Of a stretch of DNA of 20,000 bases, positions 2,574-14,794 are shown in pieces. How positions within the stretch are numbered: position 1 is the first letter of the stretch; every line of letters begins with the position of its first letter. The translations under genes were made by a program, and so were the position numbers. Below the pieces are notes generated by a model. It was not told the DNA's origin. It searched no databases and saw nothing but the letters and a program-made list of their open reading frames with translations. The stretch lies in the IMG/VR virus record IMGVR_UViG_3300035675_000007; one strand, 5' to 3'. This DNA comes from an uncultured virus (IMG/VR IMGVR_UViG_3300035675_000007). Lineage: Duplodnaviria > Heunggongvirae > Uroviricota > Caudoviricetes.

Positions 2574-3659
2574 ATGACAACCAAGGTCTACATCGCAGGC
2601 TCCGATCCCGAGGTCGAGGAGATCTTCTCGAACGCCAAGAAGATCATCGAGGAGGCGGGGCACAGCTTCGAAGACGAGGCGCTTCGGCTCACCATCGCCG
2701 AGGCCCTCGGCAAGGCACAGGCCGACACGACAGAGGCCGGCACCAAAAAGGCGACCGTCAGCGACGGTGGCGATCTCGTCATCGCCGGCGCACCGACCAC
2801 CAAGCGTCGGGCCAAGCCCGGCCAGAAATACTGGTACGACAAGGAGGGTGATCGCCAGTTCCTCGACTGGTACATCCTCGGCCGTCGCAATGGCACCGTC
2901 GAGGGGGCCCTGATCGTCGTCGGTCCGTCCGGCACCGGCAAGACCGAGGGCATCATCCAGGCGTGCGAGCGGCTGGACGTGCCGCTCTACATCGTCAACT
3001 GCGCCTCGATCACCACGATCGAGAAGTGGGTCGGCCACAAAGAGATCGACCACACGGGCACGCACTTCGTCCTGTCCGAGCCGATGCGCTGGATCGAGGC
3101 GAAGGACCCCGACTGCCCGCCAGGAGTCGTGCTGCTCGACGAGGGCACCCGGCTTCATCCGACCTTCCACAACATCACCTTCCCGCTGCTTGACGGCCAG
3201 CAGCGGATCTTCATCCCCGAGATGCACGGCTATCTCGAAGTCCATCCGCAGACAGCGTTCATCATGACGGCCAACATCGGCGGCAAGTACACCGGCACGT
3301 TCACCATGGACGAAGCCATGCGTGAACGGTTCGGCTACACCGTCGAACGGGAATGGCCCCCGGCTGCCGAGGAAGCCAAGATCCTCTCCTCGCTCTACCC
3401 GACGATCGAGGAAGAGAAGATCAAGCTGATGGTCCAGATCGCCAACCGCTCCCGGCAGATGTGGGTGAAGCAGGACCTGAGCCGACCGATCTCGACTCGC
3501 ATCCTGATCTTCGCCTGCCGCCTCGTCCGGGATGGCGCGTCGATCGCCCGCGCCTTCGAGCTGACGGCTGTCCCCCTGTATTCGCAGGATGGTGGCCAGC
3601 AGTCGGAGCGCGGCCTGATCAAGGGCATCATCAGCGGCAAGGGCGGGGAGGGTGCGTGA
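2574..3659 (+). CDS. MoxR/CbbQ/NirQ/CobS-like AAA+ ATPase (AAA_5 type)
   Basis: AGGAGG SD; Walker A GPSGTGKT, Walker B VVLLDEG, sensor-1 MTAN, arginine finger DEAMRERF, C-terminal ISTR. Confidence 0.92.
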   Translation: MTTKVYIAGSDPEVEEIFSNAKKIIEEAGHSFEDEALRLTIAEALGKAQADTTEAGTKKATVSDGGDLVIAGAPTTKRRAKPGQKYWYDKEGDRQFLDWYILGRRNGTVEGALIVVGPSGTGKTEGIIQACERLDVPLYIVNCASITTIEKWVGHKEIDHTGTHFVLSEPMRWIEAKDPDCPPGVVLLDEGTRLHPTFHNITFPLLDGQQRIFIPEMHGYLEVHPQTAFIMTANIGGKYTGTFTMDEAMRERFGYTVEREWPPAAEEAKILSSLYPTIEEEKIKLMVQIANRSRQMWVKQDLSRPISTRILIFACRLVRDGASIARAFELTAVPLYSQDGGQQSERGLIKGIISGKGGEGA

Positions 3660-3958
3660 TCCTTCGCAGTCAATCCGCGATCGCATTCTGCACTTGCCGC
3701 TTCGAGCACCTGACAGCAGATCGGGTTCACATCGGCCTGATCTTCCATTGCCATGCCGATGACGCCAAGAAGTTCTCGCGACACCTTGTCGTCTTCGTCG
3801 ACGAGAAGGACGCGTACACGGTGCTCATCCCAGGGGGATACGACTATCCGAGCTTTGGTTCATCGTGGAATCGGATGGTATTCCCCAGACTGAGCGTAGC
3901 CGCTGGCTGCAACACCCACATCTTCAGCATCGAAGGAGGGGCCGATGAAGGTCAGTAA
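3656..3958 (+). CDS. Hypothetical Cys/His-containing protein between the ATPase and vWA genes
   Basis: GTGA overlap with the ATPase stop and GGAGG SD; fills the gap to the vWA gene. Confidence 0.65.
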   Translation: MILRSQSAIAFCTCRFEHLTADRVHIGLIFHCHADDAKKFSRHLVVFVDEKDAYTVLIPGGYDYPSFGSSWNRMVFPRLSVAAGCNTHIFSIEGGADEGQ

Positions 3959-6113
3959 GCGCCTGGGCCGCTACGTCAAGCGGATTCCAGCAACGGTCAG
4001 CGAACCGAAGCCTGAGCCGATCAGGGCGGTATCGCCAAAGGAGATGAAGCCGGCCACCAAGCCGGCCTACTCGTGGACACCGGGCTACAAGACCGGTGAC
4101 TACGTCTTCTCGATGCGGTCCAAGAAAGAATACTGGCTCACATCGAAGGAGCTGCAGGAATACGACGCCGCCCTCAACCGGATCGAAGATGACGAGGCCT
4201 TCGAGGACTGGTTCGAGGAGTGGCTCAAGGCTCACCCGTACGTCAAGCCCAAGGACTACTACCAGTCCAAGCCCTATGACTGGGGCAAGACTGGTGGCGG
4301 GAAGGGCCTATCCAGCTGGTGGAGATCGGACCTCTACACATCCTGGGGAGGCGCGTGGGGCACGGGCACGGATGAGCGGCGGCTCGCCGAGGTCATGCAG
4401 GTCGTCGCGTCCACGATCAAGATCGTCGATGACAACGATCCTCCTTCGGTCGTGCAATGGGCGGCGAAGGACGCAACCTCGTCCACCAACCTCAACGCCA
4501 ACATCATCTCGATCAGCCCCGAGGCAGCGCTCGACAAGTCGCTGACCATCGAGGATGCGATCGACATCTCGACCTCCCACGCCCTCCACGAGGCGGGGCA
4601 TGACAACCCGGAATACGGGACGCGCACCATCGTCCACCAGCTGGAGAAGCCGGACCGGCTCAAGCCGCTCGCCGTCGTCGCCACGCTGGCCAACATCATC
4701 GAGGACAACCGCACCGAGCGGATCACCGGCAAGGAGAAGTATCCGGGCTTCGACCCTTACTTCCCCAAGGGCAAGGCAGATCTGTGGAAGCGCCGCAAGG
4801 CAGAGTTCAATCCCGAGAAGTGGGGCGACATCTACGAGTGCCTCAACGCCCTGATCATTCACCTCCGCTGGCCAGAGCACAGCCCGGAGATCCTCTCCGA
4901 TCCGTCCTTCACCGCGGAGCTTCCGTGGTGGGAAGAATGGGAGCGCAAGTACCAGGGCGGTGAGGTCGGCTTCCGCCAAACCATCATCGACGGGCTCGAT
5001 CGTCTCGCCAACGACGAGGAACGCAAGAAGGAGATGGAGCAGATCGCCGATGGCGAGAAGGCAGACGATCTGGCGCGGCGTAAGCTTGAGGAGGCCCTCG
5101 ATCGAGCCCTTGAGCGGGTCGCGGACAAGGTCGCGCAGTCCTGCTGGTCCGAGACCGAATACGACAAGAAGCTGAGTTCAGAGGTAGCCGAACGAGTCAA
5201 GAAGCTCGTCAAGGAGAAGCTGCACCAGTCGGCAATCCTCACCGAGTGCGGCAGCACCAAGCCGAAGCTGTGGGTCCGCAAGCCGATCGAGTACCCGTCC
5301 TCGATCAAGGCGTACACCGGCAAGCCCTCCCCGCTGGTCGACCGCTACAAGGCAGCCCTCCAGTTCAGGCCGGAGCTTCCTCGCTTCTCGACCCGGCTGC
5401 TGAAGTCCGGTGACATCGACGAGGAAGAGCTGTGGCGCTGGGGTATCCAGGACTACCGGGTCTTCGAGCGCCAGAACATCGAGACCTACCCGAAGGCGAT
5501 CGTCGGGCTGCTCGTCGACATGAGCGGTTCGATGGAGCACTCCATCCGGTGGGAGAACGACTACAAGACCAAGGTCTGGGTCGCGCAGCAGCTGACCCAG
5601 CTGTTCGTACTCGCCCTTCGGGACATGGAGGGCATCAGGCCGTATGTCTACGGGCACACGGGTGACCTCAACCTGAACGCGACAGAGACCTCGGCAGCCG
5701 ACTTCATGTACATCTGGGAGCCGGGCGATCCGCTCACTCGGATCGGCCTGATCACCGCCGAGGACCATGGCAACAACTACGACGGGTTCGCAATCGACTG
5801 GGCGGTTGACCAGTTGCTCGCCAACAGGATCGAGCAGGACGAGAGCGTCATCCTGATCGTCCTGTCAGACGGCTATCCGGCCGGCCACAACTACGGCGAC
5901 GAGATGGCCATGCAACACGTCCACCGGGTCGTCGATGGTGCCGAGAAGCGGGGAGTCCCCATTCTGCAGGTCGCCATTGACCACGCCCTTCGCCCCGCAG
6001 CGCAGGGGAAGATGTATCGCTATTGGGTCCCGTTCAGGTCTGCGTCCGAGCTTCCTCGCCAGATGGCGACCGAGCTGTCGCGGATGCTGAACACCAAGTA
6101 CGTAGGTGGGTGA
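3945..6113 (+). CDS. CobT/NorD-like vWA-domain protein with N-terminal HExxH zincin-like domain
   Basis: AAGGAGG SD; HALHEAGH plus NIIEDNRTE; GDIDEEEL...VFER linker; MIDAS DMSGS, NYDG, ILIVLSDGYP. Confidence 0.9.
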   Translation: MKVSKRLGRYVKRIPATVSEPKPEPIRAVSPKEMKPATKPAYSWTPGYKTGDYVFSMRSKKEYWLTSKELQEYDAALNRIEDDEAFEDWFEEWLKAHPYVKPKDYYQSKPYDWGKTGGGKGLSSWWRSDLYTSWGGAWGTGTDERRLAEVMQVVASTIKIVDDNDPPSVVQWAAKDATSSTNLNANIISISPEAALDKSLTIEDAIDISTSHALHEAGHDNPEYGTRTIVHQLEKPDRLKPLAVVATLANIIEDNRTERITGKEKYPGFDPYFPKGKADLWKRRKAEFNPEKWGDIYECLNALIIHLRWPEHSPEILSDPSFTAELPWWEEWERKYQGGEVGFRQTIIDGLDRLANDEERKKEMEQIADGEKADDLARRKLEEALDRALERVADKVAQSCWSETEYDKKLSSEVAERVKKLVKEKLHQSAILTECGSTKPKLWVRKPIEYPSSIKAYTGKPSPLVDRYKAALQFRPELPRFSTRLLKSGDIDEEELWRWGIQDYRVFERQNIETYPKAIVGLLVDMSGSMEHSIRWENDYKTKVWVAQQLTQLFVLALRDMEGIRPYVYGHTGDLNLNATETSAADFMYIWEPGDPLTRIGLITAEDHGNNYDGFAIDWAVDQLLANRIEQDESVILIVLSDGYPAGHNYGDEMAMQHVHRVVDGAEKRGVPILQVAIDHALRPAAQGKMYRYWVPFRSASELPRQMATELSRMLNTKYVGG

Positions 6114-7423: not shown

Positions 7424-7716
7424 TCAGGAGGATGAAAGCGGCGCGCAACAAACGGTGGGTGCTGCAGCCCTGGTATACGATGTCAAGGGCGTACGAAGAC
7501 CTTCCGAAGCACTCGGTCATCGACACCGGGATCGTGGTGGATCGGAAATACTACAAGGAGCCGAACCACCTCTTTGTCGTGAAACTCGAAGAGCCGATGC
7601 TGAAGCCGTACGAGGGGAACAACTACTTCTTCCGGCCGGTGCTGACGGAACGCGTCTTCCTGCAGACGATCAGAGATCTCAGGCAACACTACGTGCCAGA
7701 AAGGGAGGCCACGTGA
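7420..7716 (+). CDS. Hypothetical protein (start GTG 7420 or ATG 7432)
   Basis: GGAGG at 7407-7411; GTGA overlaps at both ends. Confidence 0.65.
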   Translation: MIRRMKAARNKRWVLQPWYTMSRAYEDLPKHSVIDTGIVVDRKYYKEPNHLFVVKLEEPMLKPYEGNNYFFRPVLTERVFLQTIRDLRQHYVPEREAT

Positions 7717-7973
7717 GCAGGTACATCGATCCAACGGCCTATCGCTATGCCTTGGTGCACGATGAGTACGAGGATCTGGACCTGCTCGATTACTTTTCGG
7801 TCGATGACGACTATCGTTTCGAGGACTGGGCCTTGGTTCGCATCAACCATGTCTGGAGGACCAATACTGGACAACTGGTTACCGGTGTGCGTATAATCAA
7901 GGAGTCGCCGACGGTAAGGGACATCAGGAGGCTGGCTCGCGCCAGGCTGGGCGCGCAACAGTTGGAGCCGTGA
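7713..7973 (+). CDS. Hypothetical protein, acidic N-half and basic C-half
   Basis: GGGAGG SD and GTGA overlap. Confidence 0.65.
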   Translation: MSRYIDPTAYRYALVHDEYEDLDLLDYFSVDDDYRFEDWALVRINHVWRTNTGQLVTGVRIIKESPTVRDIRRLARARLGAQQLEP

Positions 7974-12419: not shown

Positions 12420-12614
12420 ATGACGAACGAGAAGAAGGTGTCTCCTCTCCGTCCCGGGAACGAGAGGGAGGAGCCGGAACCGCAACGGCTGACGTTCGGC
12501 ATGCACAAGATCTGCACGACCTGCAAGGGGACCGGGCGGCTCGGGCGATCTGACAAGTCGTCCGCGTGCATGCACTGCAGCGGAAGGGGGTTCGTTCCCT
12601 ATGCCGGAATGTAA
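12420..12614 (+). CDS. Small DnaJ-type zinc-finger protein
   Basis: CTTCKGTG and CMHCSGRG. Confidence 0.75.
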   Translation: MTNEKKVSPLRPGNEREEPEPQRLTFGMHKICTTCKGTGRLGRSDKSSACMHCSGRGFVPYAGM

Positions 12615-13125
12615 GCGCTGCTGCGTCTTCTACCGCAGCGGGTCGTATTACTCGCATCGACGCTCAGACACGCACCGCGACACCCTGGCACATAACCAGG
12701 ACCGATTCGGTGCGCTGACGGTCAGGTGCAAGATCTGCGAGGAGCCATATCCGACGGGGGGCTACTCCGAGCACGCCCAATGGGAGCAGCACGTCAGGCT
12801 CACGAAAGCCGGAAGCAGACGCCTGCTCCGGGGCATCGCGCTCGCTACCTACGCCAATCGCCTGAGGAGGATCAGCGCTGCCGTCATGAGCGGAGTCACG
12901 ATGGCGGAGGTAGGCAGGCAGTTCGGGATCACGAAGCAGCGCGTCCACCAGATCGCCAAGGATGCGCGGATCAAGAAGCCGATCTACGTCCGGCGAATAC
13001 CAGCCACGAGGTGCTACCTCTGCGACGAGGCATTCACCTCGTGGTCAGACCACGCCATTGGTCCAGAGCACATTCGTCGGAGGGACGAGATCGGAAACTT
13101 CATCCGGAAGTACCGTCCCTCATGA
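12601..13125 (+). CDS. Triple C2H2-like zinc-finger protein with internal sigma70-region-4-like HTH
   Basis: Three CxxC-x(9-11)-H-x5-H units; TMAEVGRQFGITKQRVHQI HTH. Confidence 0.75.
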   Translation: MPECKRCCVFYRSGSYYSHRRSDTHRDTLAHNQDRFGALTVRCKICEEPYPTGGYSEHAQWEQHVRLTKAGSRRLLRGIALATYANRLRRISAAVMSGVTMAEVGRQFGITKQRVHQIAKDARIKKPIYVRRIPATRCYLCDEAFTSWSDHAIGPEHIRRRDEIGNFIRKYRPS

Positions 13126-13134
13126 ACGTGCCGG

Positions 13135-13390
13135 GGGCGCTGGGCTTAAGCGGGGCACACGCCCCCCTTGCGGGGAGGCGTGGGTGCCGTACGGCCTTGG
13201 GGAATCGCGTACGCACCTTCCGAGAGGCTGGCCCCTGGTCTGCCTTTACGCCATCGCCTCTCGCGCCCGCTGTTCACCACAGCGCAGGACGGGGGTTCAC
13301 GTGGAATCAGGGTGGTGCAAGCGCACCTCCGGGTCTATCTCCCGGCTCGTCCACGCCCGATGCACCACTTCGGCTTGCGCCTATCCTGGG
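13135..13390 (-). ncRNA. Candidate structured non-coding RNA, family unknown
   Basis: About nine helices in an intergenic gap; two GCAA-capped hairpins and G-U-closing pairs that work only on the - strand. Confidence 0.5.
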
Positions 13391-13417
13391 CTTTACGGAT
13401 GGAGTACGATATTCCTA

Positions 13418-13445
13418 CATCGAGGATTGCGTGGAACCCTCGATG
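13418..13445. promoter_or_regulatory. Inverted repeat CATCGAGG-N12-CCTCGATG (operator or hairpin)
   Basis: Perfect 8-bp arms at 13418-13425 and 13438-13445. Confidence 0.5.
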
Positions 13446-13449
13446 GGCT

Positions 13450-13490
13450 GGACCGCCGAGGCTGGAGAGCGCTTCGGCGGTCCTTTCTTT
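13450..13490 (+). terminator. Intrinsic terminator
   Basis: 13-bp stem GGACCGCCGAGGC/GCTTCGGCGGTCC (one G-U) followed by TTTCTTT. Confidence 0.75.
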
Positions 13491-13516
13491 ACGGGGCTCT
13501 CCAGCCGGCATAGTCT
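13488..13516 (+). promoter_or_regulatory. Putative sigma70-type promoter TTTACG-N17-TAGTCT
   Basis: -35 at 13488-13493, 17-nt spacer, -10 TAnnnT at 13511-13516, ~60 nt upstream of the GTG at 13579. Confidence 0.6.
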
Positions 13517-13578
13517 ACGCCCCCGCCGGGGGCCGTACATGGCGATTCTGCAGCCGTTATCGTGAGGAGGAACAGCCC

Positions 13579-14085
13579 GTGCCACGCCCGGGCCAGGACA
13601 AGTGGCCCTGTGTCTTCCGCGGGATCTTCATCAGGGAGGTCGTCGATCCGAAGGTCAAGCGGGCCTACGATGCCGAGAAGAAGAAGGCCAACTTCGGCGA
13701 TCTTCGACGGACATGGAGGGAGGAACACTGCAAGACACTCAATCCGTATGGGTCAGACACCTGCCCATATCCAGAGCACGACTGCGCCCTGGCCTTCTAC
13801 AAGGCAGCGACTGACGCAGCCGTCGCAGACAACCCCGGTGGTGCGTTTCGCCGTAAGGCCCGCATCATGGCCCTCGACCGGGCCGAGAACAAACCGCTGA
13901 GCCGAGATGCGCCGACACGCGAAGCGCGATCCGGTGACGCCGGACCTGCGCCTGCAGATCTTCGAGAGGGATCAGGGGTGTATCGCCCCCCGACTCGACC
14001 TGTCCGAATCGGGTCGATGTTCGGGACGGCTCACGCTAGACCACGTCAAGGACAAGCCGATGATGGGAAAGCGAGCCCCAAGTGA
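13579..14085 (+). CDS. Hypothetical protein (HC..C..HDC metal motif; NPGGAF motif)
   Basis: GAGGAGG SD at 13564-13570 and GTG 13579; the upstream extension to 13168 is judged non-coding. Confidence 0.7.
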   Translation: MPRPGQDKWPCVFRGIFIREVVDPKVKRAYDAEKKKANFGDLRRTWREEHCKTLNPYGSDTCPYPEHDCALAFYKAATDAAVADNPGGAFRRKARIMALDRAENKPLSRDAPTREARSGDAGPAPADLREGSGVYRPPTRPVRIGSMFGTAHARPRQGQADDGKASPK

Positions 14086-14191
14086 CCGAGCCCACCTTGT
14101 CGTCCTCTGTGAATGGCACCACCTCTGGAGCGGATGGGCAACCGCCAATCGACCCATCCTACGTGCTTATCTCCAGTCTCGGGAGTCGTGA
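13907..14191 (+). CDS. Small HNH-like endonuclease
   Basis: LRLQIFERDQGC...C..RLTLDHV...HLVVLCEWHH. Confidence 0.75.
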   Translation: MRRHAKRDPVTPDLRLQIFERDQGCIAPRLDLSESGRCSGRLTLDHVKDKPMMGKRAPSDRAHLVVLCEWHHLWSGWATANRPILRAYLQSRES

Positions 14192-14393
14192 GGTCCTGAT
14201 CCTCGGCCCGGCCCGCTGTCAGGGCTGCGGCCTCCTGGTCTTTCTGTGGACGGACATGATCTGGCGCGACCCGAACCGTCGGGAGCACCACTGCAATCCA
14301 GCCAAAGCGCGCCACGTGGCCCAGGTGGGCCTCGACCGCTACCGCCCGCTCCATGAGCTGATCCCCCAGGCTCCAGAGGGCTACGAGTGGTAA
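14082..14393 (+). CDS. Hypothetical zinc-binding protein (start uncertain: 14082 or 14163)
   Basis: ARCQGCG...HHC; C-terminal part fills the gap to the next gene. Confidence 0.55.
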   Translation: MTEPTLSSSVNGTTSGADGQPPIDPSYVLISSLGSREVLILGPARCQGCGLLVFLWTDMIWRDPNRREHHCNPAKARHVAQVGLDRYRPLHELIPQAPEGYEW

Positions 14394-14794
14394 AAGGGCA
14401 TATCCAGCGGCTCTACGACCGCCGGGCTCTCTACTTCAACCGCAAGGCCATCTCGATGGGTCTCCACGGCACCGTGACGGCCGAGGAGCTGGTCGTCCTG
14501 CCGCTGGTCTGTCACTACTGCGGGATCGGCTTGACGCACTCCCTGACGGAGTTCGACCACCAGATCCCGTTCGAGCGGGGCGGCTCGAACACGATCGACA
14601 ACATCGTCCGCTGCTGCAAACACTGCAACGGGACGAAGTTCACCAAGACGCCGACGGAGTTTCTCGAATTCCAGGAAGAGCCATTTCTTTGCATTGTGTG
14701 CGGTCGTTCTTTCCGACCACGATACAGTGACTGGAAGCGCGGTTACGGAACGACCTGCAGCCGGAAGTGTGCCGCCAAGAAGAGGTTCCTATGA
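14387..14794 (+). CDS. HNH endonuclease with C-terminal CxxC...CSxxC zinc finger
   Basis: CHYCG...FDHQIPFERGGSNTIDNIVRCCKHCNGTK; CIVCG...CSRKC. Confidence 0.88.
   Translation: MVKGHIQRLYDRRALYFNRKAISMGLHGTVTAEELVVLPLVCHYCGIGLTHSLTEFDHQIPFERGGSNTIDNIVRCCKHCNGTKFTKTPTEFLEFQEEPFLCIVCGRSFRPRYSDWKRGYGTTCSRKCAAKKRFL

Follow-up and report, generated by a model that had tools for sequence, protein, structure and literature searches.

A divergent member of the EGFOA family of structured RNAs very probably lies antisense in a long gene-free spacer of an uncultured phage

A gene-free spacer in the DNA of an uncultured phage very probably carries, at positions 13315-13219 of the minus strand, a divergent member of the EGFOA family of structured RNAs (Rfam RF02955), as judged from comparison of sequences. 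Positions refer to the window, that is, the whole stretch of 20,000 nucleotides (61% GC) that was analysed. According to our best explanation, the spacer would be the gene for a small structured RNA of the EGFOA class, read from the minus strand; the HTH gene at 12601-13125 would converge with it, and the gene that starts at 13579 would point away from it. A preliminary description of the same DNA had proposed a structured non-coding RNA on the minus strand, antisense to the plus-strand genes, and the EGFOA match bears this out; its statement that the RNA could not be assigned to a family has to be given up, the core being EGFOA. The same description had called for an Rfam search on both strands and had held that a match would remove the novelty of the RNA. 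That search matched RF02955, below the cut-off of the family, and the claim to novelty therefore falls. What the spacer holds is a real structured RNA, but a divergent copy of a catalogued orphan family and no new class.

Codon-position GC periodicity is absent from about 13126 to 13530, and the run 13036-13546 is the longest aperiodic one anywhere in the 20-kb window. Since the GTG at 13579 is the most likely start of the downstream gene, given the GC3 frame and a GAGGAGG at 13564-13570, the gap extends from 13126 to 13578. The length of about 450 nt that had been claimed for it is thus confirmed (453 nt measured, with coding periodicity lost). The genes around the gap are all on the plus strand and belong to DNA metabolism (Pfam, PHROGs). 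Three plus-strand genes close to the gap are the following.

12601-13125, plus strand: gene for an HTH DNA-binding protein of 174 aa, with its stop at 13125; convergent with the RNA
13579-14085, plus strand: downstream gene, divergent from the RNA; start assigned by the GC3 frame, with GAGGAGG 8 nt upstream
14387-14794, plus strand: HNH endonuclease gene, from family search

Further plus-strand neighbours encode a DNA repair protein and a PD-(D/E)XK exonuclease. The product of 12601-13125 matches Pfam Sigma70_r4 with an E value of 7.1e-5, under the Pfam cut-off, and matches phrog_686; besides the HTH it shows several CxxC pairs. A search among 5.8 billion proteins of 95-305 residues, in which the longest contig measured 70 kb, returned only this protein itself, and no locus for it was found in viral contigs. 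The product of 13579-14085 has no family match. Gene calls at 13562-14191 are unsettled, because the GC3-favoured gene 13579-14085 would overlap the ORF 13907-14191; the ORF list gives 13562-13900 at this place, and GC3 prefers the frame of 13579-14085 instead. Also among the plus-strand genes of DNA metabolism, at 2574-6113, a CobS-like AAA ATPase (phrog_249) adjoins a protein of 722 aa, one end of which is a VWA region of the CobT type. Pairing of the CobS/CobT type is familiar among phage auxiliary genes. ARAGORN detected no tRNA or tmRNA genes, and a promoter scan returned 0 sites.

The 34-kb viral record G001 is identical to the window across all 701 nt compared, and the metagenome locus L021, with 100% identity over 1460 nt, is the sole other copy; the phage collection gave no match to the spacer at either near or distant settings. 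Contigs from four DNA runs have no variant letters in the spacer, so that no covariation can be obtained from them, and no RNA run is listed among the sequencing runs with this phage.

Run with its gathering thresholds, Rfam gives no match anywhere in the 20 kb. Below them, RF02955 aligns to 13221-13309 of the minus strand over its full model positions 1-108 with 28.9 bits, the gathering cut-off of the family being 37.7 bits, which is a curation threshold and not a structural feature. The E value of this match is 0.0031 over 701 nt, 0.0014 over 321 nt and 3.6e-5 when RF02955 alone is run against the 34-kb record, and other Rfam families give rows only at E values of at least 2. The match takes in both conserved unpaired blocks of EGFOA, CCGUCCU and GUAAAG..AGACC.GGG, as well as the helices. 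The RF02955 model misplaces the 5′ block of the window because of a long linker. The elements of the core, all on the minus strand, are the following.

13219-13315, minus strand: EGFOA-class core, about 97 nt long, which starts 3 nt ahead of the pseudoknot strand and ends 2 nt past P2
13308-13312, minus strand: 5′ strand of the pseudoknot, CCCUG (CCCAG in other members), pairing with 13233-13237
13293-13306, minus strand: linker of 14 nt between the CCCUG strand and the CCGUCCU block
13286-13292, minus strand: CCGUCCU block, identical in all aligned family members
13268-13284, minus strand: P1 hairpin, CGCUGU/ACAGCG with loop GGUGA (R2 alignment, constrained fold)
13256-13263, minus strand: 5′ arm of P2, CGAGAGGC (R2 alignment, constrained fold)
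13250-13253 with 13229-13232, minus strand: P4, UGGC/GCCA (Rfam, R2, constrained fold)
13233-13249, minus strand: P4 loop of 17 nt, GUAAAGGCAGACCAGGG, whose final five bases are the pseudoknot strand
13233-13237, minus strand: 3′ strand of the pseudoknot, CAGGG, pairing with CCCUG
13221-13228, minus strand: 3′ arm of P2, GCCUCUCG (R2 alignment, constrained fold)

How a score under the cut-off should be read became clear from the family itself. A strict pattern made from the conserved blocks of the match gathered 3 viral, 7 genome and 36 metagenome loci, and these 46 comprise 33 EGFOA-like loci (26 distinct sequences), the copy of the window and 12 chance-like loci (9 distinct). When the 26 distinct sequences were scored with Rfam, 11 reached the cut-off or exceeded it, 9 fell at 23.8-34.3 bits and 6 had no row; none of the 9 distinct chance sequences had one. 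With 9 of 26 members at 23.8-34.3 bits, RF02955 is narrow, and a score of 28.9 bits is one that plain members receive as well. A looser viral scan added two more phage copies, L072 and L084, which score 12-15 bits with RF02955; with our subgroup model R1, one of the two reaches 99.3 bits and the other 65.7 bits. The Rfam model thus misses a large share of evident members, and EGFOA is wider than catalogued.

A further argument for membership comes from a second model, R2, made only from L004, a phage EGFOA copy with 64% GC that scores 56.9 bits with Rfam, and containing neither any sequence of the window nor the pseudoknot. Searched against the window plus 34 loci (60.8 kb), R2 found 13218-13306 of the minus strand over model positions 1-92 with 34.2 bits and an E value of 2.3e-8; all 16 modelled pairs are standard in the window, which ranks fifth of 32 rows, above many members that clear the Rfam cut-off. 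Chance pattern loci received at most 10.8 bits. On the gap only, with filters off, the core was the only real match (E 1.9e-10). A genome search with R2 returned no match in G001, and direct cmsearch returned the core from the same DNA with 34.2 bits, so the miss is one of the pre-filter. With respect to L004, both bases are changed in 10 of the 16 pairs with pairing kept: in the R2 alignment these double changes amount to five of five pairs in P1, three of eight in P2, where one more pair has a single-sided change, and two of three in P4. R1 gave on the window a local match to the loop only (20.5 bits, E 0.0037); R1, built from a low-GC subgroup, is too narrow for the high-GC type.

The conserved sequence and the predicted fold agree with this placement. 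The window carries all 21 specified motif bases; the blocks CCGUCCU (13292-13286) and GUAAAG-NN-AGACC-N-GGG (13249-13233) are correctly spaced, and across 27 sequences their columns show little or no variation. A constrained fold of the window reproduces P1, P2 and P4. In a MAFFT subgroup of 8 sequences these three helices covary, with double changes in 12 of 23 pairs and a score that none of 500 shuffles reaches; 90.7% of the cells of this alignment pair, against 72.1% in shuffles. The MAFFT alignments A1-A3 had helices out of register and did not enter any model. Because the core is without a G-U pair, homology is all that sets its strand.

The pseudoknot adds a line of evidence that R2 does not contain. 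Upstream, each of the 26 other EGFOA-like sequences carries CCCAGA, and its P4 loop contains CCUGGG; the window, alone among them, has CCCUGA upstream and CCAGGG in the loop. Family and window thus differ by a compensatory change from CCCAG:CUGGG to CCCUG:CAGGG, in which an A-U pair is turned into U-A, and the last five bases of the P4 loop would pair back to CCCUG to form the pseudoknot. In 25 of the 26 sequences CCCAGA lies 5-25 nt 5′ of CCGUCCU, and in L009 it lies farther away, behind an inserted hairpin. In L084 the pairing reads UCCAG:CUGGA, so that a different pair is doubly changed there, and L072 has ACCAG:CUGGA, with one A-A mismatch. Overall, 134 of 135 cells pair in 27 sequences and two of the five pairs have a double change, one in the window and one in L084; this covariation was matched by 2 of 500 shuffles, and slid controls pair in at most 64%. 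The CCCUGA partner in the window was picked with an expectation in mind, the chance of a CCCUG within 30 nt being roughly 0.06. The 5-bp pseudoknot is in this way backed by two independent compensatory swaps.

EGFOA was first reported as a motif in PMC5737381, and a later account describes it in unusually long gene-free spacers (10.64898/2026.07.01.735769). The window resembles such members in its CCGUCCU block, in P1, P2 and P4 with the GUAAAG-NN-AGACC-N-GGG loop, in the pairing of the loop with an upstream pentamer and in its gene-free and unusually long spacer of 453 nt; those at other EGFOA loci measure about 780-3200 nt. Like the high-GC copies L004, L022, L023 and L028, it is without the optional hairpins P3 and P5. 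It differs in its score (28.9 bits against the cut-off of 37.7), in the U-A pair of the pseudoknot that is A-U elsewhere, in a linker of 14 nt where most members have 5-10 nt, although L028 and L025 have similarly long ones, in being antisense to both neighbours and in two extra upstream CGUAAAG loops, which are unique among the loci.

How does this fold relate to the helices that had been drawn in the preliminary description? All of them exist where they had been placed. The pairing CAGGAU/GUCCUG (13383-88/13285-90), said to close a domain A, has six of six pairs on the minus strand, including one U-G, and five of six on the plus strand; the 8-bp helix GUGGUGCA/UGCACCAC has eight of eight, and CGUGGA/UCCACG and GGGCGC/GCGCCC have six of six each. 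The hairpins GGC-GCAA-GCC, 13329-45, 13269-83, 13222-62, 13189-212 and 13154-88 (CCCC-GCAA-GGGG) are all there, both GCAA loops are where they had been claimed, and CTGGGCTT occurs at 13140 and 13386 only. Two of these elements are conserved in the family, since the former linker hairpin 13269-83 is P1 and the hairpin 13222-62 is P2 plus P4; the flanking helices are without comparative support. The helix said to close a domain B shares one base with P1 and one with P2, the one closing domain A occupies part of the invariant CCGUCCU block, and the 8-bp helix overlaps the first base of the pseudoknot. The two-domain architecture, the crossing pairing, a ribozyme and an ssDNA origin, all of which had been put forward, found no support.

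Folding energy speaks less clearly. The comparison with shuffles that had been proposed for 13135-13390 came out moderately in favour of the minus strand (z -2.44, with 2 of 200 shuffles as good, against z -1.32 and 26 of 200 on the plus strand), and within this span the core and domain A are near chance: z is -0.03 on the minus and +0.19 on the plus strand for 13219-13315, and -0.35 and +0.44 for 13316-13400. The corresponding values are -1.38 and -1.48 for the 3′ flank 13126-13218, -2.73 and -1.99 for the whole gap and -3.68 and -2.09 for 13401-13545, which lies beyond the span described earlier. Since z is so uneven by segment and only 13401-13545 is strong, folding energy is weak evidence by itself.

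Outside the core, the gap contains the following elements.

13154-13188: GC-rich hairpin of 14 bp, -25.1 kcal/mol, with a GCAA loop on the minus strand and without a U-tract
13316-13400, minus strand: 5′ flank with the proposed domain A helices and a CGUAAAG (13391-13397) in an AUCC/GGAU loop
13418-13445: near-perfect palindrome or hairpin of 11 bp, with a G-U pair on the minus strand and an A-C mismatch on the plus strand
13450-13506, minus strand: two interleaved inverted repeats, with stems of 11 bp (13496-13506/13460-13470) and 10 bp (13474-13483/13450-13459)

The hairpin at 13154-13188 lies about 33 nt past the core and 29 nt past the stop codon of the convergent gene, and L004 shares the layout of core, C/G-rich hairpin and convergent gene. 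We infer that it is a putative two-way terminator: the 3′ end of the RNA would lie at 13188-13154, and the same hairpin would also halt the convergent mRNA. It resembles an intrinsic terminator in its position between two convergent units and differs from one in that neither strand has a U-tract. By analogy with members in low-GC hosts, which appear to be so organized, the RNA would form its own transcription unit. On the plus strand, the 10-bp stem at 13450-13483, followed by TTTCTTT, matches a terminator consensus scan; it departs from an ordinary terminator in being interleaved with the 11-bp repeat and in a T-run that is the complement of the GUAAAG motif. Besides these elements, 13401-13545 has a hairpin at 13519-13533, and its elements lie just 5′ of the ribosome-binding site of the next gene.

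It is conceivable, though unlikely, that the core is one module of a larger composite minus-strand RNA of about 250-400 nt, in which it would follow two GUAAAG-loop modules, at 13400-13383 and in the interleaved stems 13506-13450; this reading comes near to the multi-domain RNA of the preliminary description and is compatible with our best explanation. CGTAAAG occurs four times in the 20-kb window and three of these copies are in the gap, all on the minus strand (13244, 13391 and 13487); the expectation is 0.6, and none of 200 shuffles reaches four. The third copy (13487-13493) sits within the 13450-13506 repeats, where on the minus strand an H-type pseudoknot is possible, with a GUAAAG..AGGACC loop resembling that of P4. 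The strand preference in folding energy of 13401-13545 and of 13135-13390, and the G-U pair that the stem 13418-13445 has on the minus strand only, favour a longer RNA as well. Weighing against it are the z of domain A (-0.35), the results of R2 with filters off, which gave the 13462-13505 stem -0.3 bits (E 3.3) and nothing for the other module, and the fact that the 10-bp stem with its T-run can be read as a plus-strand terminator. No other EGFOA locus has the triple GUAAAG, and no relatives of the flanks were found across the phage, viral-contig, metagenome and protein collections searched.

Comparison with other hosts lends this idea some substance, since conservation or promoter-like and 3′ motifs there reach 60-230 nt past the Rfam core. 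Three closely related Bacillaceae loci (L052, L055 and L053) have in common a sharply bordered block, about 485 nt long, with terminator-like hairpins and with different flanks around it, which points to a discrete unit that goes beyond the Rfam model. This block comprises about 230 nt upstream and 130 nt downstream of EGFOA, and its upstream part contains CGUAAAAG and CCCGUCUG, faint echoes of core blocks. The low-GC environmental loci L003, L015, L024, L027, L034, L037, L040 and L045, a diverse group, have in common two motifs: a -10-like TATTATAACA, which precedes the pseudoknot strand by 60-75 nt, and GGGGAC(U)UAU, which follows P2 at a distance of about 50 nt. Because the EGFOA unit exceeds the 108 Rfam positions in other hosts, a transcript exceeding the core is plausible here too. 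It is considerably less probable, and in our view improbable, that the whole gap is one minus-strand RNA of about 350-400 nt made of the EGFOA core and two modules with GUAAAG loops, of which one would be an H-type pseudoknot of 11+10 bp. If true, the three linked modules could be a single-chain EGFOA assembly, given that the known trimers and dimers use separate chains, or alternatively an accessory domain steering assembly.

Could the gap instead be an ordinary regulatory spacer that separates two plus-strand transcription units, with terminators, promoters and operator palindromes, and resembles EGFOA by chance? The terminator-like plus-strand site at 13450-13483 with its TTTCTTT, the palindromes near the start of the downstream gene, the adjoining gene of an HTH regulator and an Rfam score under the cut-off would fit such a reading. 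We nevertheless regard it as very improbable in view of the R2 E value of 2.3e-8 with 16 of 16 standard pairs, the presence of all 21 motif bases when chance loci matching the motif score at most 10.8 bits, and the compensatory swap in the pseudoknot; elements of this kind may, moreover, coexist with the RNA. A structured ssDNA replication origin has even less to recommend it, and we give it almost no credence. It would account for the many GC-rich hairpins and for a gap within a DNA-metabolism region, but iterons and an AT-rich unwinding stretch were not seen in the gap, the family helices covary as RNA does, with UG and GU pairs among types, and EGFOA also occurs in chromosomal islands, in tandem copies and, in low-GC hosts, with promoter- and terminator-like flanks. 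Other members are described as folding and assembling as RNA (10.64898/2026.07.01.735769). The least credible of all is a hidden small protein gene on either strand, since the ORFs 13146-13280, 13335-13511 and 13415-13585 (minus strand) and the long plus-strand frames that cross the gap are set against the lack of codon-position GC periodicity, the absence of Pfam or PHROGs matches for the gap ORFs and the fact that, at 61-70% GC, chance by itself yields long open frames. The gap is non-coding, and its GC3 pattern and its ORFs without family match support the identity of the EGFOA core as RNA.

What might an EGFOA RNA do in a phage? Two EGFOA RNAs have been solved by cryo-EM and are described as oligomers, trimers and dimers, of separate chains (10.64898/2026.07.01.735769). 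By analogy with these, the RNA of the window would probably self-associate into small oligomers, and it would work as a folded particle and not by base pairing with its neighbours. The orphan structured RNAs ROOL and GOLLD, some of them prophage-borne, are described as forming RNA-only multimers (10.1101/2024.12.08.627333; PMC5737381); they are far larger than EGFOA, and the likeness is one of kind and not of family.

EGFOA occurs in six viral records, and in four of them it lies in DNA replication or recombination modules: in the window it is antisense, amid HTH, exonuclease and HNH genes; in G002 it lies 225 nt behind a primase/helicase gene and near RusA and exonuclease genes; in the provirus G003, it has an amidase gene on one side and DNA polymerase III alpha on the other; and in G076, it is flanked by RNA ligase/NinG genes and by a DNA methyltransferase gene. 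The contexts in G004 and G075 are uninformative. In the bacterial family of one carrier, the neighbours include a CBASS cyclase with E1/E2 genes, AAA ATPases, a helicase-nuclease, Mrr-type nucleases, serine recombinases and an integrase. In a Peribacillus locus (L059:3549-10908), EGFOA lies in a 777-nt spacer with a DncV-like cyclase and an E1/E2 fusion on one side and AAA_21/AAA_15 ATPase and helicase-REase genes on the other, a region that looks like a defence island; L059-L061 come from the cultured carriers Peribacillus, Bacillus and Paenibacillus. Carriage is sporadic: of 67 genomes from the bacterial family mentioned above, 4 contain EGFOA, two of them in two copies. In one of these two, a Bacillaceae-family genome (L066:5990-6124 and 7607-7741, minus strand), the copies form a tandem pair, 1.6 kb apart and with 58.5 bits each, within about 3.2 kb without an ORF of at least 90 aa. 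Short ORFs just 5′ of EGFOA in two other loci are unrelated.

Phages, in which it often adjoins genes of replication and recombination, and mobile or defence islands thus carry EGFOA only here and there, and on this basis we offer the tentative guess, less likely to be right than wrong, that it serves a conserved protein as scaffold or decoy, either in the conflict of phage and host or in phage DNA metabolism. The RNA of the window would be self-standing and compactly folded, would probably associate with itself and would move with mobile elements. In this phage it lies antisense in the early DNA-metabolism region, and the copies that cultured Bacillaceae carry make expression and phage-challenge tests feasible.
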